NCBI GenBank assembly: GCA_002010065.2
Contig: MTMD02000008.1
Span: 96,001-160,000 of the forward strand
DNA: 64,000 bases
Direction of reading: 5' to 3'
From: Candidatus Pyrohabitans jungbluthii
GTDB taxonomy: Archaea; Hydrothermarchaeota; Hydrothermarchaeia; Hydrothermarchaeales; BMS3B
The notes beneath the pieces are model-generated. The model was not told the DNA's origin and made no database searches. It saw only the letters and a list, made by a program, of their open reading frames with translations. Every line of letters begins with the position of its first letter. Within the stretch, counting starts at the first letter, position 1. The position numbers and the translations under genes are program-made. Below are positions 1 through 20,250 of this stretch, one piece after another.

Positions 1-90
1 AGGAGCAGAGCCGCCGAGTGCCAGCCACGCTACAATCACAGCAACAATTGCCACACCTACGCCAATGTAGATTAACGTGTTCCTGTCCAT
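1..90 (-). CDS. 5' end of a secreted or membrane-anchored protein (runs off the window edge)
   Basis: ATG at 90 with GAGGTGA SD; reads MDRNTLIYIGVGVAIVAVIVAWLALGGSAP, a hydrophobic N-terminal anchor; directly downstream of the cytochrome gene. Confidence 0.75.
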   Translation of the reverse strand, partial: MDRNTLIYIGVGVAIVAVIVAWLALGGSAP

Positions 91-133: not shown

Positions 134-1492
134 TTACAACAGCTCCACTTCAGCTACAGCCTCGTTGCTCATCCTCAGGGTTGCGCTGGGTACTGGGTCA
201 ATGGGTCTGCTCTCCTTCTTCTTGCTGTCGTGGTACATCATCACCGCTTTCACTGTGACCTTCTTTGCGCTGCCATAGGGTATCTTGTACTCGAAGTTGT
301 ACCACCTGCCTGGGTTGAACATCACACTGGTGTCATACTCCCACACTTTCCACACGCTGCCTGTGAACTTGCCCTGATAGTCGTAGCTTCCAACTTTCCA
401 TGTCTCATTGGTATAGAATATCTGGTTCCCCTTCTCATCGTAGGCATACACGTGCAGCACTGGCTTGGCTGCGAGGATGCATCCATCTGGTAGAATGTGC
501 TCTGCAAGGTTCTTGACCTCAACTTTGACGTGCACCACGTCTCCCATCTTGTGGGCGTCCAGATTCACCCTCGCTGCTTGTACCATCATCGCAGGCGAAT
601 TTGGACCTGGGAAGTCGTGCCTGTGCCTTATGCGCATTTCGCCTCCCTTAGCGGCTGGCTCGTCAACTGTCTGCATGTGGCAGTACTGGCACTCTTTTTC
701 TCTTCTCACATCGCTCTGAGCCCAGGCGTCGTAGTTTAAGCCACAGCGCACGTAGTCACCCATCTTGAGTGCCTCTTTTACATCTTGACTAACGAAGTCT
801 ATCTTCAGCTTGCTATGACACGGTTTGCAGAACTCGCTTGTCGACATGTCCCTTGAGAACTTTGCGGCATGCGGCGCATTGGGGTCTTTGATTGTTCCGT
901 AGTAGGTGTTCCCAAGCTCCCCTTCAACCATCATTGAATGACATGCTATGCATCCAACACGTATGCCGCGGAGATTCACCACGTCATCGCTGAGGAAGGC
1001 TTCATAAAGCCTATCTTTGACTTTATCGCTGGCATACTTCATCGTCGGCCCATGGCAGGCTCTGAAGCAGGCGTCCCACTCCTTGGATTTCGGGAACCTG
1101 TCTAGGTTCTTCTTGAAGTCAGAGGCGTAGCTCTGGAAGGCAAAGTAGCTGAAAACCACTGGGTTGTAGTGCTTCGACTTTGTCCACTCGTAGAAGTGCT
1201 GCGGGTGACAGGTGGCGCACTGGGAATCGTCCGGCAGAATCTTCTTAATTTCCTCATCCGTTGCGCCCAGTTTCTTCAGAAGCTTCGCTGTTGCCTCGTT
1301 CTCCTCTTTGTACTTCTTAACCAAGTCTGAGATGTCTACTGAGACCACCTTTGTCTCTACAGTAACTGGTGTGCTCTTTTTCTCTGCTGACTCAGCCGCC
1401 GCTGCAGGTGCTGAAGCCTCCTTCTTTGCGCACCCGCTGAATAGGCTCAACGCCAGCAGCACAGCTAAGGCTATGCCCACCCATTTCTTCAT
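134..1492 (-). CDS. Multiheme c-type cytochrome lipoprotein, ExtKL-like (Cys form)
   Basis: Lipobox LFSG-C; CATCH, CIACH, CKPCH, CQYCH plus atypical CFRACH; HILPDGC motif; likely start ATG 1492 after GAGGTGA. Confidence 0.85.
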   Translation of the reverse strand: MKKWVGIALAVLLALSLFSGCAKKEASAPAAAAESAEKKSTPVTVETKVVSVDISDLVKKYKEENEATAKLLKKLGATDEEIKKILPDDSQCATCHPQHFYEWTKSKHYNPVVFSYFAFQSYASDFKKNLDRFPKSKEWDACFRACHGPTMKYASDKVKDRLYEAFLSDDVVNLRGIRVGCIACHSMMVEGELGNTYYGTIKDPNAPHAAKFSRDMSTSEFCKPCHSKLKIDFVSQDVKEALKMGDYVRCGLNYDAWAQSDVRREKECQYCHMQTVDEPAAKGGEMRIRHRHDFPGPNSPAMMVQAARVNLDAHKMGDVVHVKVEVKNLAEHILPDGCILAAKPVLHVYAYDEKGNQIFYTNETWKVGSYDYQGKFTGSVWKVWEYDTSVMFNPGRWYNFEYKIPYGSAKKVTVKAVMMYHDSKKKESRPIDPVPSATLRMSNEAVAEVELL

Positions 1493-1523
1493 TCTCTTAT
1501 CACCTCTCAAAACTCTTCAGGCG

Positions 1524-1571
1524 ACCTCCTTTCAAAGAGGGAGGTGAACATGTGGCATAAGCCACACGTTC
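1524..1571 (-). promoter_or_regulatory. Two-hairpin 5' leader of the cytochrome gene
   Basis: 11-bp stem 1546-1556/1561-1571 (one G-U) and 6-bp stem 1524-1529/1540-1545 between the TATA box and the SD. Confidence 0.5.
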
Positions 1572-1605: not shown

Positions 1606-1630
1606 CATATATTTATAATTTTTCGCTGAA
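1606..1630 (-). promoter_or_regulatory. BRE-TATA promoter of the cytochrome operon
   Basis: Minus strand TTCAGCGAAAAATTATAAATATATG. Confidence 0.6.
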
Positions 1631-1698: not shown

Positions 1699-2574
1699 TC
1701 ACAATACGTTTTTATCTGTTATGTAGATTCTATATGTCCTTTTAAAAGGTTCTCGCCTTATTATTCCCATGTTTTCTAGTTTAGCAAGTATCTGACTCAC
1801 CTTTGGACGTGAAAAGGTTATACATTCTGCTTTCCAAATCTCCTCCTGTAAGGCCACACCTCCTTTTGCCTTAATAAGGGAAAGAATTAGCTCTTCGTCA
1901 TCGGTGAGCTCATTCTTCCTTTCTTTTGAGAAAGAGACTACAATTTCTTTGATACGTTCCCAGTTCATCTTCAGAAAATAGATTAGCAGAAGAAGAGCGA
2001 AGATTAATCCCATGGCAGGAATCACAAAACCCATGGACTTCTTAGCAAGGGGATAAAAAACACCCACATGAAAAGACTCATACTCTCTCAGGGTTCTGTT
2101 CCAGACGAGGATGACATGATTATCTTCAATGTTTATGTAATCCGGCATAACTGTCAAATCTCCCGAAGCTTTAAAAGGGAAATTCGCTGACATAACCTCC
2201 GGAAAAGAGTTTTCCGGCAATTTGATAGTGATCAGAAAGTTTTCCACGAAATAGGGGAAGCTGATGTCCTTATAGTAAAAGTACTCCTCCCCCGCCAACC
2301 TGCTCTCTGTCCCGGTTAAAGCCTTTATTTCATGCCTTCCCGGAGGAATGACAATGCCCTCCTCACTTCTCACTAAGTCAATCTCGTCCCCGAGCACCTC
2401 CACATCGCCCACATTAATGGGGAGGAACACCTCCTCATCTGAGATCACCTCAATGAATACCTTCTCTTCGCCCCTCTCCAAGTCAACATGGATTTCTACC
2501 TTCTTTACCACAACTTCTCCATGCGCCGGAGGCATCGACAGGGCAAATAGCAGGACAAACCAGATTAGTCTCAT
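1699..2574 (-). CDS. Membrane-anchored transcriptional regulator (signal peptide, extracellular domain, TM helix, C-terminal wHTH)
   Basis: Likely start MRLIWF; TM segment FVIPAMGLIFALLLLIYF; C-terminal LTDDEELILSLI...FSRPKVSQILAKLENMGIIRREP. Confidence 0.8.
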   Translation of the reverse strand: MRLIWFVLLFALSMPPAHGEVVVKKVEIHVDLERGEEKVFIEVISDEEVFLPINVGDVEVLGDEIDLVRSEEGIVIPPGRHEIKALTGTESRLAGEEYFYYKDISFPYFVENFLITIKLPENSFPEVMSANFPFKASGDLTVMPDYINIEDNHVILVWNRTLREYESFHVGVFYPLAKKSMGFVIPAMGLIFALLLLIYFLKMNWERIKEIVVSFSKERKNELTDDEELILSLIKAKGGVALQEEIWKAECITFSRPKVSQILAKLENMGIIRREPFKRTYRIYITDKNVL

Positions 2575-2689
2575 ATCTAAAAGAGCATCTGAGGGGGTAT
2601 TTATATCTATCAATTGAAAATGTATCACTCAAAAATAAAACCACCTTAATTACTGAATAAAATTAGATAATTATTCAAAAAATACGTCA

Positions 2690-3622
2690 TTAAACGTTAA
2701 GCTTCACCTTGAATGTCTTTTTATAAGGTTCGCGCACTATTAATCCACGAGACTCAAGTTCTGAGATTATTCTGCTTACCTTGGGTCTCGAGAATGGCAG
2801 AATCTCACTCTTCCAGATAGTCTCCTGTAGAACCTCTCCACCCTGGCTGCGGATGAACTCCACTATGGCGCGCTCCTCCTCATTGAGGAAGACGTTGGCA
2901 ACTTCCACGCGTCGCCTGCGTTTTGCATAGTGGAATCCCACAAGGAATGTGAGAGAAGCTATGAAAAGCGTTGATATCAAAAAATAATTCGGGCCTTCTT
3001 TTTCTGGGAGATGTATACCCACCTCAAAGCTCTCTCCAGCCTTGAGGGAGCGCTCCCACATCAGTGTTACCCTGTCGCCCCGAATGGCGACGCCATCAGG
3101 AGGTATGCTGGTGCTCCTCTGGAAAGTGTCTGCCGAGCAGCAGTTAGGCAGACTGCGGTTGAATGTCCTTATCTCGGGAAAGACCCCCTCTGGAAATATC
3201 ACCAGAAGGCGGAAGGTATCCACATCATAGGGGGTGGTGAACCCCTTGTAAAAATATGTACCTTCATTGATATCAACCTTTTCAACCGCCCTCATGGTGA
3301 AGGCGATGTTTTCTCCCGCTTTCAAAGGCTGCGGGAAGTACACTCTCTTTTTTATTCCCAGTTCCTCAACCCTCATAGGCTCTCCGCTTGCTGAGACTGC
3401 ACTCAGAGGCAAGTGAAAGGCGAAATCAAAGAATCGCAGGTCATTAACCTCAGAGGTGAGGTCCACGTAAAACTCTTCCTTTCCTGTCTGCAGGTCTATG
3501 GTCACAGTTATATGGTTTATATGGTAATCACCACTCTCGCTGGCAATGGCAAGGGGAAGCATGAGAAGAAAGATGCCAAGACAAGCTATCTGGGCATACA
3601 ACGGTGGTGTTTTCATCACCAC
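2690..3622 (-). CDS. Membrane-anchored transcriptional regulator, paralog of 1699-2574
   Basis: Same architecture; C-terminal LNEEERAIVEFI...FSRPKVSRIISELESRGLIVREPYKKT; extracellular NCCS motif. Confidence 0.8.
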   Translation of the reverse strand: MVMKTPPLYAQIACLGIFLLMLPLAIASESGDYHINHITVTIDLQTGKEEFYVDLTSEVNDLRFFDFAFHLPLSAVSASGEPMRVEELGIKKRVYFPQPLKAGENIAFTMRAVEKVDINEGTYFYKGFTTPYDVDTFRLLVIFPEGVFPEIRTFNRSLPNCCSADTFQRSTSIPPDGVAIRGDRVTLMWERSLKAGESFEVGIHLPEKEGPNYFLISTLFIASLTFLVGFHYAKRRRRVEVANVFLNEEERAIVEFIRSQGGEVLQETIWKSEILPFSRPKVSRIISELESRGLIVREPYKKTFKVKLNV

Positions 3623-4854: not shown

Positions 4855-5267
4855 CGGTACTCGTTCTGCCCAGGAAGCTGGTGGAGGAGATTCTCAGCGA
4901 CGCAAAGAGAAGGGCTCCTCAGGAAGCGTGCGGGGTGATTGCTGGAGAGGTTAAAGGAGAGCGCAAGCTTGCTCTTGCGGTTTATCCCTGCAGGAATGTA
5001 TCTCGCAACCCCTTAGTGAGGTATACTATAGCTCCTGAAGACTTGGTAAAGGCGCTGAGCGATATAGAGGGTCGTGGAATGGAGGTTCTGGGCTTCTACC
5101 ACTCCCACCCCATGGGAAGTGTTGCACCTTCTGGAATAGACCATGCTAAGGCAAGCTGGGATGGCGCGAGCTACGTTATCGTCAACCTCAAGGGAGAGGT
5201 TGCATCGTGGGTGTGGGAGGAGGAGGCAAAGAGGTTCAGGCGGGAGAAGGTGGTGGTTGAGGACTAG
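4851..5267 (+). CDS. JAMM/MPN+ metalloprotease (desampylase/Mec-like)
   Basis: EACG ... YHSHP ... PS..D JAMM motif. Confidence 0.9.
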   Translation: MTVLVLPRKLVEEILSDAKRRAPQEACGVIAGEVKGERKLALAVYPCRNVSRNPLVRYTIAPEDLVKALSDIEGRGMEVLGFYHSHPMGSVAPSGIDHAKASWDGASYVIVNLKGEVASWVWEEEAKRFRREKVVVED

Positions 5268-6289
5268 TGGTAAAACACCGTACCCACCATGGAATAAAAG
5301 AGGAGCATAAATGCAAGGGATATAAGAAGAAAGCCGCCGAAGCCCAGAAGAGCGAGCTTTGCAAGTTGCACCTGAAGCTTTGCAGCGCTATTACGAAGCG
5401 AGGGCTTTGCCTTCAGAGGTTCAACCACTGCAACAAGAACCCCAGCAATGCCACCAAGGAAGAGGAGGGCATAAAACGGGTAGCCTATTGCCGGGGCGCG
5501 AAGAACCTCAAAGGGGCAGCGATGCTGCGTGGGTAAGCCGAATAGTACGACGTTGAAGTAGGGGCTAAGGAAGGTGAACATCGCCAGGAGAGAGACGGCA
5601 AAGGCAGCGAGGCTGGCTATACCTGAAGCGAGGGCGAGGCGTCGCTGCCTTCTTCGCAGGTAGGTGTAGAGCAGCCCCAGCGTCAGAGCGTATGCGATGA
5701 AGAACGCAAGCATTGCCACGTTGGTGGGGAATTTCATAGCCACAAAGCCGTAGGGGTTGGTCTCGGTGCGCAGAGCAGAGCCACAGCAAGAGGTTATCAC
5801 ATTGGGCGATATGCTTGTGTAGTAGCGAATTTCAAGGTAGGCATCCGCTATGAGCAATGGCAGGAAGAGCAGGAGAAGCGCGTACTTGAGCTTCACCAAC
5901 GGGTAGTCCTCAGCCTGGGTGTCGAGGTGGTTAATCACAAGCCACGAGGAGTAGACAAATATGGCGAAAATTTTAACCCAGAGGGTGGCGAAGCCGTAGC
6001 TGTTTGCGTTAAGCGAACCAAAGGCACACATTGCGCCTCGAATAAAGCTCGCCAAGTAGTCGGCAGTGGCTGCGAATAGTAGCAATGAAAGCACCTGAAA
6101 GGCAAGGGCGTACTGCATCAGCGTTGAGATTAAATAGGTGCGCTTCTCCAGCTCAAGCTGCTCTTCGCTTGCGCTCTCAAGCTGCCAGCGCAGGAGTATG
6201 CGCACACCTTGCGATGCCGCATATATGCAGAGGAGGAGCACAATAACTGTGCCCACAATCTGGGAGATAACCCAGAAGTTGAGTATCAT
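5264..6289 (-). CDS. Polytopic membrane protein associated with the NosL/ABC cluster
   Basis: About 8 hydrophobic segments; GAMCAFG, ITSCCGS and HRCPF motifs; 4-nt overlap with the ABC ATPase. Confidence 0.75.
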   Translation of the reverse strand: MILNFWVISQIVGTVIVLLLCIYAASQGVRILLRWQLESASEEQLELEKRTYLISTLMQYALAFQVLSLLLFAATADYLASFIRGAMCAFGSLNANSYGFATLWVKIFAIFVYSSWLVINHLDTQAEDYPLVKLKYALLLLFLPLLIADAYLEIRYYTSISPNVITSCCGSALRTETNPYGFVAMKFPTNVAMLAFFIAYALTLGLLYTYLRRRQRRLALASGIASLAAFAVSLLAMFTFLSPYFNVVLFGLPTQHRCPFEVLRAPAIGYPFYALLFLGGIAGVLVAVVEPLKAKPSLRNSAAKLQVQLAKLALLGFGGFLLISLAFMLLFYSMVGTVFYH

Positions 6290-6966
6290 CTCACTACCTC
6301 TACAAGCCTGCCATCGCGCATGTCGAAGATAACGTCGACCATCTCATGCTGAAACACGAGAGGGTCATGTGTGGCTATAACTATCGTCCTGCCCTCCCGC
6401 TTGAGGTTGTGCATTATCCTGAGAAACTCCTCCGCAAGGGCAGTGTCGAGATGAGCTGTGGGTTCATCCGCCACTATTATTCTCGGGTTGTTTACAAGCG
6501 CCCTCGCAATAGCTACGCGCTGCTGCTCTCCGCCGCTCAGCTCGCGAACCTTGAAGTCGCTTCGCCTCTCCATTCCCAGATTCTTGAGCAGAGCTAAAGC
6601 ACGCTTCCTGCTCTCATTCGCAGGCAACGGTGTTGGAATTAGAGGCACAACCACGTTGTCAACCACGCTCAGTTCTGGAATGAGGTTGAACTGCTGGAAG
6701 ATTATACCCACGTGCTCCCGCCTGAAGAGGGTGAGAAACCTCTCAGGAAGCTTGGACACCTCTTTACCAGCGACAAAAACGCGCCCAGAGGTTGGCTTGG
6801 CAACGCAGGCGATTAGACTCAAGAGTGTGGTCTTGCCTGAGCCGCTGGGACCGCGAAGCACAGCAACCTCGCCCTCATTAACCTCGATGCTTACATCCCT
6901 AACTGCTACCACCTCATTTGGCTTACCTCTGTTAAACACCTTTGTCACGTGCTCGCAGCGTATCAC
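6286..6966 (-). CDS. ABC transporter ATP-binding protein (LolD/MacB type)
   Basis: GPSGSGKT, LSGGEQQR, ADEPT, ATHD. Confidence 0.95.
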   Translation of the reverse strand: MIRCEHVTKVFNRGKPNEVVAVRDVSIEVNEGEVAVLRGPSGSGKTTLLSLIACVAKPTSGRVFVAGKEVSKLPERFLTLFRREHVGIIFQQFNLIPELSVVDNVVVPLIPTPLPANESRKRALALLKNLGMERRSDFKVRELSGGEQQRVAIARALVNNPRIIVADEPTAHLDTALAEEFLRIMHNLKREGRTIVIATHDPLVFQHEMVDVIFDMRDGRLVEVVR

Positions 6967-8133
6967 CTATATCCCCCGCATGGCTTCGTCCGGGTCAATG
7001 GTGCTCGCGCGCCAGGAGGGCACCACCACCGCCGCAAGGAATGGTACAACGCTTATGAAGAATATGAGCAGGAGGTCCTCTAGGGTAACCACAGGCATGA
7101 GCTCAAAGCTGGGGTAAAGGGTGGACCAGCCAAGCAGCACAGGTTTGAGCAGAGGGGCGCCGAGGTAGAACACGTGGAGGTAGGCGAGGATAACGCCCAA
7201 GAGGTAAGAGTTCAGCGCCAGCACAACGCCCTCGAAGGTTCGCATCTCAAGCACATCGCCGGTGCTCCAGCCAAGGGCTTTTAGGATGCCTATCTCGCGC
7301 TTCTCCTCAGCGGTTAAGCCAGAGGCACGGTCCCATACAAGTATGGCGAAGGCGAGCAGCGCACCCAGAAGGCTGGCGAGGAAGACGCCAGAGCGCCAAC
7401 CGAAGATTGCGTCGTAGGTCTCGCGTATCTGCTCCCTGGTTAATACCCGCGTGTCAGGAAGCTTTTGAGCGATTTTTATAGCTATGTTCGGAAGCTCCGC
7501 AGGATTGGCTACGTATACAGCAATGTCGTTGGAGTACCCGCTTGGGATACCGAAGAAGTCTCTCGCCTTATCCTGAGGCATGACTATTAAATCTGCGCTC
7601 TGCAGTGCTGAAGAAGAGGAGAATACCCCAGCCACAACAAACTTTACGTACTCCCCCCGGTGGTCGCGCAGCAGTAGCTTATCGCCAACGTTAAGGCGCT
7701 TTGCCCTTGCAAGAGCTTCGCCTACCAGCACAGCGCTCTCTCCAGAGAAGCCTCCCTCAGAAATAGCGAGGGGAAGACTTTCAAGGCTTTGAACCCCTAT
7801 AATGGTGTAGGTAGCATCCTCATCGGCGTCGTAGTAGTAGCCCCACACCCTAGGCTCAGCCCTGCTCACGCCGCGAATGCTCTGAATGGTTGAGATATAC
7901 TCCAATGGGACAAGCCCCTGCCTCCCGGCGATGATCTTCTGAACGGTTATGTCGGGCGCCAGCGAGAGCGTCTCCCGCGCTTCATGGTTCAGGGAGTTCA
8001 TCATCATGACAACACTTGCAAGCATGAAAACCACAAGGGTAAACACGAGTATTGTTGCCAGGTTTTTGCCCTTCCTGCGGAGCAGGAAGTTAACTGAATA
8101 ATCCAGGATGTTGCGGTGCTTCTCGAAACTCAT
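6967..8133 (-). CDS. ABC transporter permease (FtsX/MacB type)
   Basis: One TM, large extracytoplasmic domain, three TMs; REIGILKALGW motif. Confidence 0.9.
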   Translation of the reverse strand: MSFEKHRNILDYSVNFLLRRKGKNLATILVFTLVVFMLASVVMMMNSLNHEARETLSLAPDITVQKIIAGRQGLVPLEYISTIQSIRGVSRAEPRVWGYYYDADEDATYTIIGVQSLESLPLAISEGGFSGESAVLVGEALARAKRLNVGDKLLLRDHRGEYVKFVVAGVFSSSSALQSADLIVMPQDKARDFFGIPSGYSNDIAVYVANPAELPNIAIKIAQKLPDTRVLTREQIRETYDAIFGWRSGVFLASLLGALLAFAILVWDRASGLTAEEKREIGILKALGWSTGDVLEMRTFEGVVLALNSYLLGVILAYLHVFYLGAPLLKPVLLGWSTLYPSFELMPVVTLEDLLLIFFISVVPFLAAVVVPSWRASTIDPDEAMRGI

Positions 8134-8432
8134 CTCTCCACCTCAATGCGCGTATCGAAGCCCGCGAACTTCGGTCTGCCAAAGCCCGTGCAGGAGGCAT
8201 GGTAGCACAATTGCGCGGGGAGGTCGCGGAAGCAACCAGAGAAATCGACTACACTTGGATTGCGTGTGGAGTAGCAGTCCGTGGCTATTACCAGGTCGCT
8301 CAGCTCGAGACTCTTAGCCAGAGAGCGCTTCTCCTCAAGCTTCGCCACCCTGCTTTGTGCATGAGCCGTAAGAGCTGCCAAGCTGAGAAGCTGGAGTACA
8401 AGGATGAGGGCCACGCTTGTGGAATGCCTCAT
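8130..8432 (-). CDS. Small exported Cys-rich hypothetical protein
   Basis: Signal or anchor helix; LSDLVIATDCYSTRNP...CYHASC; 4-nt overlaps with both neighbours. Confidence 0.7.
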   Translation of the reverse strand: MRHSTSVALILVLQLLSLAALTAHAQSRVAKLEEKRSLAKSLELSDLVIATDCYSTRNPSVVDFSGCFRDLPAQLCYHASCTGFGRPKFAGFDTRIEVER

Positions 8433-8893
8433 CGCGGCTTAACACCTCGCGCTGCAAGTTCTGAGAAGCTGAGGATATCGCCAGAAGGATAATCATTGCG
8501 GAAGCTCTCTGCATCCTCCAGACGGGCGAACACCACTATGCCAAAGCCCATGGGTGTTGGTATAGCAGCATCTGTAACATAATAAGCGTTCTCTGCATCC
8601 ACCCATTCTTGGGTGTAGTAGTCCCTGCAGTATATCTTAGCGATAGCCTCGCGGTGCTTGGTGTAGTAGAGGAACATATCGCCCGGGTCGTCGAAGAACT
8701 TCACCTCGTGGCTTTTGAGGATGACCTCACACGCCCAGTTTTCGTAGTCTTTGACAAACATCCCACACTCTGGGCAGCGAGCCTCCGCAGGTATTGGCAC
8801 CGGCTCAAGCTTGGGGGAGGTGACACTCTCGTCGCCCTTCTGAGCACAGCCTCCAATCACCAGAAGTGCAACCAGAAGCACTGTTGCGCGCAT
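8429..8893 (-). CDS. NosL-family lipoprotein
   Basis: Lipobox IGG-C; CPECGM, FFDDPGDM, TPMG motifs. Confidence 0.85.
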   Translation of the reverse strand: MRATVLLVALLVIGGCAQKGDESVTSPKLEPVPIPAEARCPECGMFVKDYENWACEVILKSHEVKFFDDPGDMFLYYTKHREAIAKIYCRDYYTQEWVDAENAYYVTDAAIPTPMGFGIVVFARLEDAESFRNDYPSGDILSFSELAARGVKPR

Positions 8894-9070
8894 AAGATAA
8901 TTTGCTCCCCGGGAGTATATAAAAATTTAATCCCTGAAAATGTGATGAAAAAATAGCTTAGGTGATGTTTTTCTGGTGAGCTGAGAAGAAAACGCGTCAA
9001 AACGTGAAAAGAGTCTTCGCTAAGCAGGGCAAAATATTTATTAACTCCACCGTCCTAAAACACGATACCC

Positions 9071-10273
9071 ATGAAGATAGACATAATCTACCTCGCGCTA
9101 CAGAATATCAAGAAAAGGAAGTTCCGCACCATTGGCGTGGTCATAGCTATAGCCATAGCCTCGGCTACGCTCTTCTCCTCGATTATACTAATGAAGAGCA
9201 TGTCCTCCTCCCTCGAGCTGGGCATAGCTCAGCTTGGCGCAGACATAATGGTGGTGCCTCGCGAGGCAGAAGAGCCATTGAGCGCCATCCTTCTGGGCAG
9301 CGCCCCCTCGAAGCACTACCTGAGTAGGAAGTACGAGGAGCGCATCGCAGGCATAGAGGGAGTGGAGAAAGTTGCGCCTCTCGTATTTCTTGAAACCTCA
9401 GAGCAGGGGTGCTGCTTCAAGCCGGGCATTTTTATCATTGGCTTCGACCCTGAGAAGGACTTCATAGTAAAGCCATGGGTGGAGAAGCAGCTTGGCAGCC
9501 TAGCTGCCTTTGAGACTATCGCTGGCTCAGGTTATGACTGGATGCCGGGCTTCAAGGTCTACCTGTACGGCTTCCCCTTCACCATAGCTGCGAAGATGCC
9601 AAGCACCGGCGTAGCCTACTTTGATAAAGGTATCTTCATGCCTCTCGACAGGCTCTACTGGTTGGCGAAGCGCTCTCGAGAGTATGAGGACATCGCCGAT
9701 CTCACGTTGCGCTCTGGGCAAGTGTCTGCGATTATGATACAGGTTGCCCCAGGGGAGGAGGCGGAGCGCATCGCAAAGGCAATTGAGTTCTACTTCCCAG
9801 AGCTTAAGGCAGTGGTTGCTCAAAAAGCTCTGGGCAACGTAAAGAAGCAGATGCTAATGCTGCTGCGCAGCCTCTTTGCCCTAAGCGCCTTTACCTGGCT
9901 AACAGCCGTGATTCTTGTCTCTGTAATACTCTCAATGAGCGTCAATGAGCGCCGCCGGGAATTTGGAATCCTGCGCGCCCTGGGAGCGACAAAGCGGTTC
10001 ATCTTCGGGGAGGTTATCGCAGAGGCTTACATCCTCGCCACCCTTGGAAGCGTGCTCGGCATGCTCGCGGGCTACGCCTTTCTCACAGGCTTCCAAGACT
10101 TCGTCATAAACTACCTGAACATGCCTTACCTCATACCCAACAAGTTCTATGTTGCTCTCATAAGTCTTGTAATAATCGACGTTTCCCTCTTGCTGAGCAC
10201 CGTAGCCAGCTTTTACCCCGCCTACAGAAGCGCAGAGCTTGAGCCCTACGAAGCTATAAGGTCGGGTGAGTAG
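9071..10273 (+). CDS. ABC transporter permease (FtsX/MacB type)
   Basis: LGADIMVVP; ERRREFGILRALGA; extracytoplasmic GCC motif. Confidence 0.9.
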   Translation: MKIDIIYLALQNIKKRKFRTIGVVIAIAIASATLFSSIILMKSMSSSLELGIAQLGADIMVVPREAEEPLSAILLGSAPSKHYLSRKYEERIAGIEGVEKVAPLVFLETSEQGCCFKPGIFIIGFDPEKDFIVKPWVEKQLGSLAAFETIAGSGYDWMPGFKVYLYGFPFTIAAKMPSTGVAYFDKGIFMPLDRLYWLAKRSREYEDIADLTLRSGQVSAIMIQVAPGEEAERIAKAIEFYFPELKAVVAQKALGNVKKQMLMLLRSLFALSAFTWLTAVILVSVILSMSVNERRREFGILRALGATKRFIFGEVIAEAYILATLGSVLGMLAGYAFLTGFQDFVINYLNMPYLIPNKFYVALISLVIIDVSLLLSTVASFYPAYRSAELEPYEAIRSGE

Positions 10274-10957
10274 ATGCTCATTGAAACGCAGAACCTAACA
10301 AAGGTATACAGGCTGAAGGAGTATGAGGTTGAAGCGGTTCGCGATGTGAATCTCGCCGTAGCTGAAGGTGAGTTTATCTCAATAGTGGGGCACTCGGGCA
10401 GCGGAAAAACAACACTTTTATCCCTCATTGGTGGGCTCACAAAGCCAACCTATGGTAGGGTTCTCATCGACGGCATAGATATATGGAGCCTGAGCGATGA
10501 GGAGCTTTCACGCATGAGGAATAGAAAGATAGGGTTCATGTTCCAGTTCTCAAGCCTAATACCCACCCTCACGGTGAGGGACAACATGCTCTTACCTGCG
10601 GCGCTCTCTGGAAAGGTGGGAAGCGCTGAAATGAAGCGAGCGCGGGAACTTCTGGAGCTTGTGGGTCTGGCAGATAAGATAAACGCTTACCCCACGCAGC
10701 TCTCCGGCGGCCAGCAGCGGCGAGTTGCAATTGCCAGAGCATTCATGAACAGCCCGAAGATTATCCTCGCCGACGAGCCCACTGGCGACCTAGACGAGAA
10801 GTCAGAGATGCATGTAATGAAGCTGCTCAAAGCTATGAATGAAGTTGAGGGAACAACCATAATCCTCGTTACACACAGCCGCGAGCTTGCAGCGCAGACG
10901 CAGCGCAGGCTTGTGATGAAAAACGGGCGACTTTTTGAAAAAAAGAATTTTCTATAG
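10274..10957 (+). CDS. ABC transporter ATP-binding protein (LolD/MacB type)
   Basis: [25 protein letters not shown]. Confidence 0.95.
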
Positions 10958-11064: not shown

Positions 11065-11988
11065 GTGAAGCTCAGGCTGGATTATCTTGAGACTTTTAAG
11101 GAGGTTGTTGAAGAGGGAAGCTTTCTCGGCGCCTCGAAAGCGCTGGGTATGAGTGTGAGCACAATAAGCCTGCATATCGATGCTGTGGAGAAGTTTTTTG
11201 AGGCAAGGCTTCTTGAGCGCAACGTCAGCGGGGTAAAGCTCACAAGAGAGGGGGAGATTGCCTACAACGGCATAAAGGAGCTTTTCACACTCCTTGAAAA
11301 GACAAAGAAGGGGATAAAGAACCTGAGCACCAAGATTGTAAACATAGGCATAGGCTGCGTGGGAGTGCCCATAATCGCGGAGATTCAGATGGGTTACAAG
11401 GAGGTTCGTCCTGACGTAGACGTCAGGGTGAAGCTCACCGGAGAGTACACGTGCTTAGAGCTGCTGGAGCATGGCGAGGTCAGCATTGTGCTCGCTGGTT
11501 ATCCGACGCCGCTCAAGCTGGGCGACGGCTACCGCGTTGAGGAGATAGGCTACGACCGCTTTGTTTTAATAGTGCCTCCCAACCACGAGCTGGCGAAGAA
11601 GAAAGAGGTCACCGTGGAGGATGTGCTCTCATATCCCATGGTTACCCTGAACAAGGGGTACAGCAGCACCGCCATTGAGGATACCCTGCGAGAACTCAGG
11701 AACGTAGAGAAGGAGCAGAAGATTGAGTGCAGCGTGAACGACATCTTTTCTCAAATTTACGGCGTCTCCTCAGGGCTGGGCACGGCAATCGCAAGTTACG
11801 TGCTTTCAAAGCGCTACGAGGAAGGGGGTCTGGTGGTAATTAAGGAGATAAAAGACTTTACCGATGAAAGACCAATATATGCGATAACCACAGATAAAGC
11901 GCTTGAAAATCCAGTTATAGCAGATTTCTACACCTACCTTGTTGAGAAGGGAACTGAACTTCTTGAAAAGTACAAGGTGGTTAAATGA
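11065..11988 (+). CDS. LysR-family transcriptional regulator
   Basis: N-terminal HTH (GSFLGASKALGMSVSTIS...LLER...LT.EG) plus substrate-binding domain. Confidence 0.9.
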   Translation: MKLRLDYLETFKEVVEEGSFLGASKALGMSVSTISLHIDAVEKFFEARLLERNVSGVKLTREGEIAYNGIKELFTLLEKTKKGIKNLSTKIVNIGIGCVGVPIIAEIQMGYKEVRPDVDVRVKLTGEYTCLELLEHGEVSIVLAGYPTPLKLGDGYRVEEIGYDRFVLIVPPNHELAKKKEVTVEDVLSYPMVTLNKGYSSTAIEDTLRELRNVEKEQKIECSVNDIFSQIYGVSSGLGTAIASYVLSKRYEEGGLVVIKEIKDFTDERPIYAITTDKALENPVIADFYTYLVEKGTELLEKYKVVK

Positions 11989-12512
11989 AGGAGAACACAA
12001 AAAAGTACATCCCCTACATCTGGCTGGACGACGAAACGGGGCATCCCCTGATGATGAACGAGAGGTGTACAATAATCTTTAGCGAGACCCTCAGTACGCT
12101 GAGGCTTAGCCTCTACAAAATAATCGGCGAGGGCTCAGAGATGCTTCTCCGCCTGATAGGCAGAGATATGGGGAAGAAGTATGCGCAGCTTGTTCTAAAG
12201 CAGTACCCAGAGTTGAACGAGGTAAGCAAGCACACGCAGATTTACGAGCTATGCTCAATAATACTCAGAAATACAGGCTTTGGGAAGATAAAGATTCTCG
12301 AGCTCGACGTGACCAAGCCAGAGATGAGGGCGATAATCAAGGACGCACCTTCTGGGCTGGGAATCAAGTCTCTCCCTCCCATCTATAACCTCGAAGCAGG
12401 GATGCTGTGCGGCATCCTGGAGGAGATCTTCGATAGGGAGATGGTAGTCTCAGGCTACAGGTTCAATGAAAGCGAGGATAATTATGAGTTAACAATAACG
12501 AAGGTGGAGTGA
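11985..12512 (+). CDS. V4R-like small-molecule-binding domain protein
   Basis: G.DMGK..A, GFGKI, EAGMLCGILE pattern typical of V4R/TRAPP-like folds. Confidence 0.6.
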   Translation: MKENTKKYIPYIWLDDETGHPLMMNERCTIIFSETLSTLRLSLYKIIGEGSEMLLRLIGRDMGKKYAQLVLKQYPELNEVSKHTQIYELCSIILRNTGFGKIKILELDVTKPEMRAIIKDAPSGLGIKSLPPIYNLEAGMLCGILEEIFDREMVVSGYRFNESEDNYELTITKVE

Positions 12513-12734
12513 ATGCGGGTGTTGGACGTTAGAGGTGAGATATGCCCCGTTCCCCTCGTGCGCTGCGTGAATGAAATAAAGAACATGAAGCCCGGAGAGG
12601 TGCTGAAGGTTATCTCAGATCACCCCCCCGCGAAGAAGAGCATACCAATGGAGATGGAGGCACAGGGACACGAGTACACCATTGAGGAAGACGGCGCTGA
12701 GTTTACAATAACCATAGTCGTCAAGGGTAAGTAG
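12513..12734 (+). CDS. TusA/SirA-family sulfur carrier (YeeD-like)
   Basis: LDVRGEICPVP motif; 73 aa. Confidence 0.9.
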   Translation: MRVLDVRGEICPVPLVRCVNEIKNMKPGEVLKVISDHPPAKKSIPMEMEAQGHEYTIEEDGAEFTITIVVKGK

Positions 12735-12735
12735 T

Positions 12736-13206
12736 ATGCGCTACCTTTCCCCTACAACAGCAGCGATTCTTCTTGCCCTGCTGAACCTCTCGCTGTACAT
12801 TACCCTCGACAGACCCTGGAGTATAACCACCGGCGAGAGCCATTTTGTTGCCTATGTGGAAAACCTATTTTTTCCAGAGCACGTGGCTAACAATGCCTAC
12901 TTCCAGCGGTATATACCTGAGCTCAACTGGCGGGTGTATCTGAACTTCGGGATAATCTTCGGCGCTTTTATTGGTGCATACCTTGGAGGCGACTTTAAGG
13001 TGCGCATCCCCAGGGTTAAGATGCGCTTTCTTCAGGTTTTCATAGGCGGGCTACTTATGGGTTATGGTGCTCGCCTCGCCATAGGGTGCAACATTGGTCA
13101 CATAATGTCTGGCGTACCTCAGCTGGCCATCTCCAGCATAATCGCCTTCATAGCAATAGCTGCCGGTGCTTACATCGGCGGGAAGATTCTAATGCGGGTG
13201 GTGTGA
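12736..13206 (+). CDS. YeeE/YedE thiosulfate transporter family, half-protein 1
   Basis: GGLLMGYGARLAIGCNIGH. Confidence 0.88.
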   Translation: MRYLSPTTAAILLALLNLSLYITLDRPWSITTGESHFVAYVENLFFPEHVANNAYFQRYIPELNWRVYLNFGIIFGAFIGAYLGGDFKVRIPRVKMRFLQVFIGGLLMGYGARLAIGCNIGHIMSGVPQLAISSIIAFIAIAAGAYIGGKILMRVV

Positions 13207-13737
13207 ATGGACGCTCTATTGGGATTCCTCTTCGGCGTTGCAATAGGCTTTGTGCTTGAGCGCGGACAATTTTGCATGGCCTCCGCCTTTAGAGATTTCT
13301 TCCTATTCCGCCACACCCATATTCTACGCGCTGTGATGCTCTATCTTGCTCTGCTTACCCCAGCCTTCTTCCTGTTTCACAGCGCAGGCTTGATTGAGAC
13401 CTACCCTTACATAAAGGATGCAGGGTTATTCACCGCCGTGGGTGGAGTAATCTTCGGCATAGGCATGGTGCTTGCCGGAGGCTGTGCCTCTGGCACACTT
13501 TATAGAATAGGCGAAGGTTACGTCACCTCGCTCGTGGCACTTGTGGGAATGCTTATTGGTATTGGCGCCTTTGGTGAGAGTTACTCCTGGGTAAAAGAGG
13601 TTTTAATTGACACCACGAGCATGGGTAAGCTGACGCTTGCCGAGGTTGCAGGTATTTCGCAGAGCGTAGCTGTACTCTTTGGTACTGCTAGTTTTGCAGC
13701 GCTTTATCTGTGGATGAAGAGGAATTTTAAAAATTAA
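13207..13737 (+). CDS. YeeE/YedE thiosulfate transporter family, half-protein 2
   Basis: RGQFCMASAFRD and GMVLAGGCASG. Confidence 0.88.
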   Translation: MDALLGFLFGVAIGFVLERGQFCMASAFRDFFLFRHTHILRAVMLYLALLTPAFFLFHSAGLIETYPYIKDAGLFTAVGGVIFGIGMVLAGGCASGTLYRIGEGYVTSLVALVGMLIGIGAFGESYSWVKEVLIDTTSMGKLTLAEVAGISQSVAVLFGTASFAALYLWMKRNFKN

Positions 13738-13933
13738 CAAAAGGCACTGTCTCCCCGCTCAACGGTGATTTCGAATTTAGTGTAAGGGCTCTCACTCTAT
13801 TTTCGTTATTACTGTAAAAGCTTTCGAAAAATTTAAATACATGTTCCTATACCTAATAAATCAAAATGTTTAATGTAAAACCTGCATGACATCATAGGCA
13901 TTAAAAAATAATTTAACAAAAGAGGAGGTGAAA

Positions 13934-13981
13934 GTGTTGGAAACCTGCCAACCCGCTAAAATAAGGAGGTGGAGGGCATGA
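13934..13981 (+). CDS. Putative 15-aa leader peptide (MLETCQPAKIRRWRA)
   Basis: GGAGGTGA SD, GTG start, stop overlapping the rhodanese ATG (ATGA). Confidence 0.35.
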   Translation: MLETCQPAKIRRWRA

Positions 13982-15138
13982 ACAAAGGTTTACTGGCGCT
14001 GCTTGTAGGCGTGCTGTTTTTTGCCAGTGCCTCGCTGGTAAGTGCAGCAGAGTATCCCGGCCCACTGGTTTCCATGGACTGGGTTGAGGAGCACCTGGAC
14101 ACCATAAAGAACCCTGACCAGACAGAGATTCGCCTTGTCGAGGTGAGCAAGTCTGGTTATGATAAGGGGCACATCCCCGGAGCGGTGCACATCAAGTGGG
14201 GAAGTGAGGTATTTGGTCCCGGAACAGACCACATGCTTCCTGATTATGCAGCGATGTCTGCAGTGATGAAGAAACTCGGAGTTACCCCGGACACCCACAT
14301 AGTTATATACGCCGACAAGCTTGACCAGGCAACCCGCTTCTACTGGACGCTCAAGTACTGGAATGTGGAAAAGATAAGCATAATGAACGGCGAGAAGAAG
14401 GAGTGGAAGGAAGAAGGTCGCCCCATGACCACAGAGGTGCCGGATGTTAAGCCACTCGACTACCCGCTCAAGTATCCACCCAACTCAAAGGTAAACGCAC
14501 TGCTTCACCCCGACGTCATGGAGGGTCTTGCAACTGGAAAAGTACTCTTCGTAGATGCCAGACCCGCCGCCTACTTCGAGGGCAAGAAGTTCTCCCTCAG
14601 CAAGTGGGTGAGAAGCGGTCACATACCTGGTGCAGTTAACGTAGCCTCCCCGGAAGAGGTCGTGAAGGATGGCAAGATACTGCCCATCGAAGAGCTCAAG
14701 AAGATTTACGAGAGTAAGGGAGTGACCCCCGACAAGAACATCATAGTGTACTGCAACACTGGCGTCAGGTCTTCGCTGGCATGGTTCATACTCCACGAGC
14801 TTCTGGGGTATCCAAATGTCAAAAACTACGACGGCTCTATGAGAGAGTATGCCAACAGCTTCTACCTGCCGATGGAGCCTGACTCCTTCAATGTGTACAA
14901 GGACTTCCCCAAGGTCCCAATGCAGGAAGTTAAGGACATAGCCACAGAAGCAAAAAGCGCAGCAGACAGCAACGCTGCAAAGATCGCCGAGCTGGAGAAG
15001 CAGCTTGCAGAGACAAGACAGATAGCTGAGGCAGCAAAAGCCGAAGGTAAGGGCTTGTGCGGACCCACAAGCGTCGCACTACTCGCTGCGCTTCCGCTCG
15101 CAGGGTATGCCCTGCGCAGGAGGTACATGAAGAACTAA
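13978..15138 (+). CDS. Exported tandem-domain rhodanese (sulfurtransferase) with CGP-CTERM sorting signal
   Basis: Signal peptide; two GHIPGA motifs; YCNTGVRS active loop; YDGSM; C-terminal LCGP-hydrophobic-RRR. Confidence 0.9.
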   Translation: MNKGLLALLVGVLFFASASLVSAAEYPGPLVSMDWVEEHLDTIKNPDQTEIRLVEVSKSGYDKGHIPGAVHIKWGSEVFGPGTDHMLPDYAAMSAVMKKLGVTPDTHIVIYADKLDQATRFYWTLKYWNVEKISIMNGEKKEWKEEGRPMTTEVPDVKPLDYPLKYPPNSKVNALLHPDVMEGLATGKVLFVDARPAAYFEGKKFSLSKWVRSGHIPGAVNVASPEEVVKDGKILPIEELKKIYESKGVTPDKNIIVYCNTGVRSSLAWFILHELLGYPNVKNYDGSMREYANSFYLPMEPDSFNVYKDFPKVPMQEVKDIATEAKSAADSNAAKIAELEKQLAETRQIAEAAKAEGKGLCGPTSVALLAALPLAGYALRRRYMKN

Positions 15139-19758: not shown

Positions 19759-20241
19759 TTAAACAAAGAGGGTCACATCAGCGTCGCTGGCGATGTCCAG
19801 GAAGCCCGCCGCACCAAGGCAAGCGTCCACCACTGGCAGGAGGTCACTCTCAGGGCAGCCCATCACATCCATGGTCATCTGGCAAGCGTAGAACTTGACA
19901 CCCATCTCCTTGCAAATGTTTATCAGCTCTTCAATGCTGGGCACATTGTGCTTTTTCATCATGTTCTTCATCATCATCGTTGCCATGGCTGTCATCCCAG
20001 GAAGCATGCCTATTATGTTGGGCACTGGCATGGGCATCGCCGGGTTAGCTATGGGGGCAACCTTCAGGCTCTTGTACTTCTTCTTGTTGATTATGTCCAG
20101 GCCATAGAAGGTGAAGAACAGGTGCGCCTCCCAGTCCATGCCCGCAGCGGTGCTCGCGAGTATGAGGGGTGGGTAAGCAGCATCAAGGGTACCTTTGGTT
20201 ACAATTATACATATCTTCTTTTTCTTCTTCTCTTCTGCCAT
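19759..20241 (-). CDS. DsrE/DsrF/DsrH-like (DsrE2-type) protein
   Basis: KGTLD.AYPPLILASTAA, FFTFYGL, YACQMTMDVMG. Confidence 0.88.
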   Translation of the reverse strand: MAEEKKKKKICIIVTKGTLDAAYPPLILASTAAGMDWEAHLFFTFYGLDIINKKKYKSLKVAPIANPAMPMPVPNIIGMLPGMTAMATMMMKNMMKKHNVPSIEELINICKEMGVKFYACQMTMDVMGCPESDLLPVVDACLGAAGFLDIASDADVTLFV

Positions 20242-20250
20242 TTTAACCAC

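Follow-up and report, generated by a model that had tools for sequence, protein, structure and literature searches.

MccSep (= ExtKL, GSU2937-2936) of Geobacter sulfurreducens was presented in 2025-2026 as representing a new class of enzymes that cleave S-S bonds, and in the accompanying survey nearly all members of its family were found in bacteria (Mihara et al., bioRxiv 2025 / Sci Adv 2026). The locus analysed here raises the question of whether a selenium-free version of this enzyme is encoded by an archaeon and, if so, what it might do there. The locus lies in a stretch of 64,000 nucleotides (hereafter the window; G000:C8:96001-160000) from the genome of Candidatus Pyrohabitans, an archaeon of the phylum Candidatus Hydrothermarchaeota (1.99 Mb in 15 contigs). 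It contains a gene for an exported cytochrome with five heme-binding sites, one of which is CX3CH instead of CXXCH. Judged from sequence comparison, the encoded protein is a divergent, selenium-free (cysteine-type) member of the MccSep/ExtKL family and not a categorically new protein.

Coding sequence and sequence motifs

One open frame on the minus strand, without an internal stop, spans window positions 134..1510. A Shine-Dalgarno motif (GAGGTGAT) is located 7 nt ahead of an ATG at 1490-1492, and the called start of a relative, P0002, falls at the same methionine. Therefore, the coding sequence (CDS) was assigned to 134-1492 (minus strand; 452 amino acids), as in the original prediction, which had been made from the nucleotide sequence and its open reading frames (ORFs). 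The protein entry used in most searches, P0001, is the version from an upstream TTG, and its residue numbers equal the numbers counted from the ATG plus 6 (C256 = C250, C344 = C338 and H153 = H147). The four CXXCH motifs, CFRACH and the additional cysteines in YVRCG and PDGC that had been listed previously are all present, but the lipobox cysteine C21 had been missed, which brings the total to 13 cysteines. A low-complexity linker rich in Ala, Pro, Thr and Lys follows the lipobox.

When the residues of the protein were shuffled 20000 times, only 3 of the shuffled sequences contained two or more CXXCH motifs, indicating that the motif set is beyond chance. The nearest named relative is encoded in a metagenome-assembled genome (MAG), Candidatus Pyrohabitans sp. 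JdFR-17 (92% identity), and the ratio of non-synonymous to synonymous substitution rates (dN/dS) against this ortholog is 0.045 (dS 0.93, 451 codons). This strong purifying selection indicates that the cytochrome gene is in use. No matches (0) were obtained in an Rfam scan of the window.

Membership in the MccSep/ExtKL family

MccSep is a polysulfide reductase of the periplasm that forms homotetramers and carries five hemes (PDB 9wt8, 9wt9 and 9wta-c). H122 and C239, the latter being strictly conserved in the family, are the ligands of its heme 2, and its selenocysteine, U325, is located in the SIPDGU loop of an immunoglobulin (Ig)-like domain; activity is lost in the C239H and U325C variants (Mihara et al.). 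A link between the archaeal protein and ExtKL had been suggested from the sequence motifs, and it was upheld by the curated families: the best NCBIfam match of P0001 is NF040886 ('multiheme c-type cytochrome (seleno)protein ExtKL'; E-value 2.8e-29, below the cut-off; residues 79-435). The sole above-threshold Pfam match, PF13435 (Cytochrome_C554; 25.2 bits vs a gathering threshold of 20.8; residues 97-192), describes a heme-packing module and no function.

When a profile built from the six closest proteins was searched against the PDB sequences, MccSep was the top match (9wt9 and 9wt8; E-values 1.5e-21 and 2.3e-21), followed by 5ze8, the cytochrome c552 of Thermochromatium tepidum (4.3e-14). 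HHalign of the same profile against a profile of MccSep-like proteins, one of which (P0070) matches 9wt9 at an E-value of 1.3e-146, gave a probability of 100% and an E-value of 2.6e-52 over 336 columns. The alignments pair the YVRCG cysteine (C256) with C239, the PDGC cysteine (C344) with U325 (X of 9wt8) and the heme-2 histidine (H153) with H122, and all five heme sites align with the conserved heme positions of the family. C256 is kept in 42 of the 42 family rows and in 0 of the 12 outgroup rows, and C344 is a cysteine in all nine rows of its clade. The original prediction had left it to an alignment to decide between a PDGC cysteine in the place of the selenocysteine and an unconserved one in a relative of c554-type cytochromes; the cysteine proved to be both aligned and conserved. 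Its description as a 'Cys-substituted archaeal ortholog' is apt as to the cysteine type and the archaeal host, but 'ortholog' is too strong a term for a divergent clade member.

Several points weigh against this assignment. The NF040886 match misses the equivalog cut-off by a wide span (102 bits vs 250 bits), and P0001 alone matches the PDB entries of MccSep weakly (E-value 0.002-0.004, 9wt8). Canonical CxxCH motifs are not present at all five sites, heme 2 being CFRACH, and such a motif on the catalytic heme is an odd point; because the published filter is not passed at this site, the protein is filed as a variant inside the family by phylogeny and not as a filter member. R83 and K372, which are needed for MccSep activity and orient the substrate but are not stated to define the family (Mihara et al.), are not conserved either. 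R83 lies opposite a gap, in a stretch deleted from this protein, and V389 is found opposite K372. The lysine next to V389, K388, is specific to Pyrohabitans, being absent from P0003 and the sister proteins. The residues K163, H296, D131 and D261 (P0001 numbering) are invariant in the clade and are candidates for the roles of the missing R83 and K372.

The predicted fold agrees with a two-domain protein. An AlphaFold2 (AF2) model based on 130 aligned relatives (mean predicted local distance difference test score, pLDDT, 88.8; predicted template modelling score 0.81) consists of a heme domain made of helices and a beta-sandwich at the C-terminus, with pLDDT < 50 at residues 32-42 in the linker. 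The 130-row alignment was used because a model from merely 3 sequences was unusable (pLDDT 48.6). The C-terminal domain (residues 301-458) matches Ig- and fibronectin type III-like domains with VIA-align Z scores of 8-10. In fold libraries that hold no MccSep entries, the best match was 5ze8 (Foldseek E-value 7.1e-16; VIA Z 22.2, root-mean-square deviation 3.6 over 312 residues, model residues 88-455). Since MccSep is not in these libraries, the geometry of the two cysteines and the heme is deduced from the alignment, which also counts as a point against the assignment.

Recoding of the gene as a selenoprotein gene was considered and ruled out by the uninterrupted frame and by the selenocysteine machinery not being found in the genome. 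None of the 46 tRNAs of the host is a tRNA-Sec, and neither SelD (best 88.8 bits vs a cut-off of 125) nor SepSecS (21.5 bits vs 224.85) was found in the genome, suggesting that a selenoprotein could not be made in this host.

Family survey and phylogeny

An exhaustive profile search yielded 385 proteins at E-values of <= 0.001, 52 at <= 1e-10 and 7 at <= 1e-30. Among the 155 proteins surveyed, 15 contain both cysteines and 100 contain neither. At least 20 of the 155 keep the ligand cysteine and end exactly after PDG, PDT or PDA, the signature of a UGA-encoded selenocysteine, and P0013, P0016 and P0017, judged by eye, add three more UGA-type ends after a PDG-like motif.

A careful tree was constructed from 54 rows (42 of the ligand-cysteine family and 12 of the outgroup). 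Ten rows had been dropped beforehand: L016 and L017, which repeat P0008, and P0020, P0071, P0034, P0036, P0037, P0019, P0049 and P0024, most of which formed long branches or were poorly placed. The ligand-cysteine family is separated from the outgroup with a support of 100/99. The archaeal clade, consisting of the window protein, P0002, JdFR-17 and P0003 (origin not given), is supported at 100/99 and is sister (100/99) to five cysteine-type proteins that include the Nitrospirota loci L013 and L015; the L013 gene is assigned to the cysteine type, clade 5, in Data S2 of Mihara et al. The archaeal and Nitrospirota group is in turn nested in a 32-row clade (100/98) together with selenocysteine-type lineages and the MccSep-like clade. 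A quick tree of 64 rows gave the same outcome. In an approximately unbiased (AU) test, a topology in which the other 38 family rows are held together without the archaeal four was rejected (difference in log-likelihood 73.1, p 4.1e-5), the tested group having been named after inspection of the tree.

The terms 'Hydrothermarchaeota', 'Pyrohabitans' and 'MTME02' do not occur in the data files of Mihara et al. (the published MccSep dataset). According to the methods of that study, sequences with altered heme motifs were removed from the survey; thus, the present CX3CH-containing sequence would be excluded. In the accessible parts of the literature searched, no publication linking Hydrothermarchaeota to MccSep or ExtKL was found. 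The sole row labelled Archaea in the published dataset (Data S1, PMC13510729) is a selenocysteine-type protein of clade 3 from a Methanomethylicales MAG.

Distribution and authenticity of the archaeal gene

Of five genomes in the genus, two contain the cytochrome, and those without it are 93-96% complete; the count is likewise 2 for the 35 genomes of the order and for the 38 of the phylum. Distant matches are all that was found in five more Hydrothermarchaeota genomes, and the relative in one of them (G019) has neither cysteine. In a metagenome scan, the added matches were either loci of the same species (92% identity) or remote relatives with 21-32% identity. No RNA run was among the sequencing runs listed as containing the stretch.

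This patchy occurrence, together with the bacterial affiliation of the relatives, would fit an artefact: the contig could stem from a bacterial contaminant, the CX3CH site could be misassembled, or the gene could be decaying. We consider such an artefact extremely improbable. The contig is 394757 bases in length, and genes for reverse gyrase, the archaeal termination factor FttA, a proteasome subunit and formylmethanofuran-dehydrogenase-like proteins are located just downstream of the cytochrome gene. The gene recurs with its synteny in a second species, an A/G substitution leaves the CX3CH spacing unaltered, the low dN/dS is at odds with decay, and the stretch is present in DNA runs of 7 studies. 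Contamination in particular was ruled out by the archaeal marker genes on the contig and the synteny in the second species.

The CX3CH site at heme 2

Among the 155 surveyed proteins, CX3CH at heme 2 was found in two, P0001 and P0002. The sister species has CFRGCH (L012, L005 and L035) or CFRACH (L034/P0002) at this site, and the recurrence of the spacing indicates that it is not an assembly error. The motif differs from CXXCH by the insertion of one residue, A151 (P0001 numbering), which is Gly in JdFR-17. CXXCH is found at this site in P0003 and in the sister proteins from Nitrospirota, which places the origin of the insertion inside the Pyrohabitans lineage.

The original prediction had suggested that this site may need special maturation. 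This idea is not supported, in view of the precedent of MmcA of Methanosarcina acetivorans, for which the accessible part of the source reports a CXXXCH peptide with a heme mass shift by mass spectrometry, and the heading of a companion preprint names CcmABCEF as necessary and sufficient for MmcA maturation. To the extent covered by these sources, no special lyase is needed for CX3CH, and no dedicated heme lyase gene was found beside the cytochrome gene. Genes for CcmC, two CcmE and CcmF-like proteins are present in the host genome. The two CcmE genes have identical scores (G000:C8:187153-187452 and C2:99256-99555), and three frames of the CcmF/CcmC family are found in addition to CcmC (C2:100796, C10:61554 and C3:1505).

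Proposed function and alternative roles

Inferred by homology, the function of the protein would be the reduction of S-S bonds, and the reduction of polysulfide at the outer face of the membrane is the most likely role, which we favour with some reserve. Such a cytochrome would probably let the cell respire sulfur compounds. The gene for DsrA is present in the host (478.9 bits, above the cut-off), adjoined by a DsrB-like gene. In the Nitrospirota sister loci, a secreted rhodanese gene directly follows the cytochrome gene in all four intact loci (L014, L018 and L019, in which frames are broken, were left out of the count), and L013 also contains TusA/DsrE-like genes. A sulfur-trafficking cluster is located in the window at 11065-15138, ~12 kb from the cytochrome gene; its products are TusA, a split YeeE/YedE transporter, a tandem rhodanese with a signal peptide, a regulator of the LysR type and a 175-aa protein of unknown nature. 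A DsrE-like gene is found at 19759-20250.

Two other features of the Nitrospirota loci were noted. In L015 (8136-11264), genes for a histidine kinase and a sigma-54 response regulator are located beside the cytochrome-rhodanese pair, and a 94-aa secreted ORF is present upstream of the pair in L016 (1622-1906) and L017 (317-601).

The protein would be exported by the general secretory (Sec) pathway and anchored by a lipid at Cys21. The archaeal CcmABCEF system would then attach the five hemes, including that at the CX3CH site, as the MmcA precedent suggests. Electrons from a membrane donor would enter at heme 1 and pass via hemes 3 and 4 to heme 2, a path proposed from homology with the MccSep crystal structure, and the alignment predicts His147 and Cys250 as the ligands of heme 2. 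On the PDGC loop of the Ig-like domain, Cys338 occupies the place of the selenocysteine and may attack an S-S bond of polysulfide. The bound sulfur would be handed to Cys250, and the resulting bridge would be reduced by heme 2 with release of sulfide, as in the mechanism proposed for MccSep.

Two observations weigh against polysulfide reduction as the role. First, no rhodanese gene is located next to the cytochrome gene at the archaeal locus. Second, the engineered U325C variant of MccSep, the counterpart of a natural cysteine enzyme, is nearly inactive, with a severe loss of activity on polysulfide and selenite and no restoration of the sulfur-reduction phenotype (Mihara et al.). The effect of U325C suggests that the cysteine enzyme may be slow or use another substrate. 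The protein may accordingly share the fold and the His/Cys-ligated heme plus cysteine site with MccSep but differ from it in its substrate (selenite, tetrathionate or thiosulfate, or organic polysulfides or disulfides) or in the direction of the reaction, in which case sulfide or thiols would be oxidized and the electrons would go to the many other cytochromes of the cell. The severe impairment of U325C on polysulfide, the replacement of the substrate-orienting R83 and K372 by a different set of clade-invariant residues (K163, H296, D131 and D261), the reduction of selenite by MccSep itself and the use of His/Cys hemes for thiosulfate oxidation in TsdA and SoxAX (Mihara et al.) all speak for this alternative, which we regard as possible but rather unlikely. 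Against it stand the retention of the catalytic pair and of the PDG loop, the pairing of the sister-clade genes with rhodanese, a sulfane sulfur carrier, and the inactivity of MccSep on thiosulfate and tetrathionate (Mihara et al.).

The cytochrome content of the host suggests another role. The genome contains 17 open frames with two or more CXXCH motifs, one of them encoding 3318 aa with 69 motifs, and in the accessible part of Kato et al. 2019, the multiheme cytochromes of Hydrothermarchaeota are interpreted as agents of extracellular electron transfer. The present protein could thus be a non-catalytic electron-transfer component of this proposed apparatus, and its closest library fold, 5ze8, is annotated simply as penta-heme cytochrome c552. 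The T. tepidum protein is not known to have an enzyme activity. We consider a non-catalytic role improbable, because both catalytic cysteines are conserved in the clade, whereas the ligand cysteine is found in none of the 12 outgroup rows and 5ze8 has Ala at the selenocysteine place; the strong purifying selection also argues against it.

The giant frame (G000:C2:536644-552322) contains 3 CX4CH motifs in addition to its CXXCH motifs and is followed by frames with 3, 4, 7 and 5 CXXCH motifs. Up to 67 motifs were reported in the JdFR MAGs in the accessible part of Kato et al. 2019.

If the cytochrome is a polysulfide reductase, one might further speculate that the locus represents a minimal, selenium-free module for polysulfide respiration in a cell without an outer membrane. 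Such a module would combine a lipid-anchored MccSep variant and its CX3CH heme with a small membrane peptide, encoded directly downstream (see below), in place of the rhodanese; the tail of the peptide would deliver or dock persulfide or polysulfide, and the inserted residue would retune the heme so that a thiol could replace the selenol at high temperature. This extended scenario is doubtful.

Gene neighbourhood and history

The features of the locus are listed in Table 1.

Table 1. Positions of the features of the cytochrome locus in the window, with the basis of each assignment
Feature	Position	Strand	Basis or remark
CDS, pentaheme lipoprotein cytochrome, cysteine-type MccSep/ExtKL family	134..1492	-	452 aa; TAA stop 134-136
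Signal peptide (Sec export type) ending in lipobox LFSGC (Cys21)	1430..1492	-	Sequence; lipidation predicted
Heme 1 site CATCH (92-96)	1205..1219	-	Motif scan; column conserved in family
Heme 2 site CFRACH, CX3CH (142-147)	1052..1069	-	Homologous to catalytic His/Cys-ligated heme 2 of MccSep
Heme 3 site CIACH (181-185)	938..952	-	Motif scan
Heme 4 site CKPCH (222-226)	815..829	-	Motif scan
Cys250 in YVRCG	743..745	-	Counterpart of MccSep C239, heme 2 distal ligand; alignments
Heme 5 site CQYCH (268-272)	677..691	-	Motif scan
PDGC loop with Cys338 (codon 479-481)	479..490	-	Aligned at the place of MccSep selenocysteine U325
C-terminal Ig-like beta-sandwich domain	137..601	-	AF2 strands 313-456; VIA-align matches
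Candidate archaeal promoter: A-rich stretch resembling a transcription factor B recognition element, and TATA-like box TTATAAATA	1608..1623	-	Sequence; conserved in JdFR-17
11-bp inverted repeat with 4-nt spacer, in leader	1546..1571	-	Perfectly conserved
50-aa single-pass membrane peptide, first 30 codons in window	1..90	-	ATG 88-90; predicted to be co-transcribed
Regulator 'B', membrane-bound winged-helix (DUF7343)	1699..2628	-	Upstream; accompanies an occupied slot between NosL and regulator A and is missing otherwise
Regulator 'A', membrane-bound winged-helix (DUF7343), paralog of B	2690..3622	-	In all five genus genomes

The ORF for the 50-aa peptide, whose full span (G000:C8:95941-96090) runs past the start of the window, begins 40 nt past the cytochrome stop codon, behind another GAGGTGAT motif. 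The peptide contains one predicted membrane helix and an invariant C-terminal sequence, TPVITTVPPHKLGCG (His-x3-Cys tail). Its differences from the JdFR-17 copy include in-frame indels, and the last 15 codons, compared by eye, contain 5 synonymous and 0 non-synonymous changes. Only three variants of the peptide were found in a large protein database, all with an unchanged tail, and the peptide is present in exactly the two of the 35 order genomes that carry the cytochrome. These features indicate that the ORF is a real gene linked to the cytochrome. A complex prediction for cytochrome residues 60-458 and the peptide gave a score of 0.02, which speaks neither for nor against binding.

Beyond the peptide gene, a T-rich stretch and a separate TATA-like box precede a gene for a NosL-family lipoprotein. 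NosL was ruled out as an operon partner because of these intervening elements and because congeners without the cytochrome also have NosL. In the region covered by window 5264-10957 and G000:C8:95188-95766, two NosL-family lipoprotein genes flank two MacB/FtsX-type ATP-binding cassette transporter modules and the gene for a membrane protein of 341 aa that has no Pfam match.

Upstream of the cytochrome gene, the inverted repeat in the leader could be an operator or an RNA hairpin, and it may serve as an operator for the adjacent membrane-bound winged-helix regulators. The repeat is followed by a CCTCC...GGAGG pair.

Comparison of the genus genomes showed that the region between NosL and regulator A is a variable slot. 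In G008 and G009, NosL directly adjoins regulator A and the slot is empty; in G010, it contains regulator B and an exported redox protein of another kind, of the C_GCAxxG_C_C family and with one CXXCH; and in the window and JdFR-17, it contains regulator B, the cytochrome and the peptide. The variable slot and the nesting of the archaeal clade among mainly bacterial sequences (most library proteins in the family set carry no taxon) suggest acquisition from bacteria, and it is most likely that the gene was acquired together with that for the 50-aa peptide. The G010 slot protein (L031, G010:C34, 1939-2823) is a twin-arginine lipoprotein with a C-terminal CXXCH, and a regulator B copy of its own adjoins it.

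Significance and comparison with known systems

The gene would extend the MccSep family to a well-supported archaeal lineage of sulfate-reducing, heat-loving inhabitants of the subseafloor crust, and it suggests a candidate route to sulfur or polysulfide respiration in a group whose cytochromes were assigned to electron transfer in earlier genome studies. It also offers a natural experiment on two points, on how a cysteine-type enzyme could work when the engineered U325C is barely active and on the effect of CX3CH attachment on a catalytic His/Cys heme. Because the published search would filter this sequence out, similar variants may have been missed elsewhere.

Four systems can be compared with the archaeal protein. 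MmcA is likewise an archaeal multiheme cytochrome with a heme-bearing CXXXCH matured by CcmABCEF, but as a heptaheme protein of the Rnf complex it is otherwise unrelated and, as far as the accessible sources go, provides a precedent for maturation only. The pentaheme c552 of Thermochromatium tepidum (5ze8) has the same two-domain architecture but contains Ala at the selenocysteine/cysteine position and is more distant in sequence (4.3e-14 vs 1.5e-21 for MccSep); thus, it stands with the wider family and not in the clade bearing selenocysteine or cysteine.

MccSep and the archaeal protein, with an identity of about 20-25%, are both exported and share five c-type hemes, the distal cysteine of heme 2 (C239 and C250) and the PDG-selenocysteine/cysteine loop on an Ig-like domain at the C-terminus (U325 and C338). 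They differ in the replacement of selenocysteine by cysteine and of CXXCH by CX3CH at heme 2, and in R83 and K372, which are not conserved. Unlike the soluble periplasmic MccSep, moreover, the archaeal protein is a predicted lipoprotein with a disordered linker in an archaeon without an outer membrane. The closest counterparts are the cysteine-type homologs of Nitrospirota/Thermodesulfovibrionales (clade 5; sister at 100/99, 32-34% identity), all of which are of the cysteine type and have both cysteines. These homologs are bacterial and have ordinary signal peptides and a canonical CXXCH at heme 2, and their genes are followed by that for a secreted rhodanese (4 of 4 intact loci), whereas the archaeal gene is followed by that for the 50-aa membrane peptide.

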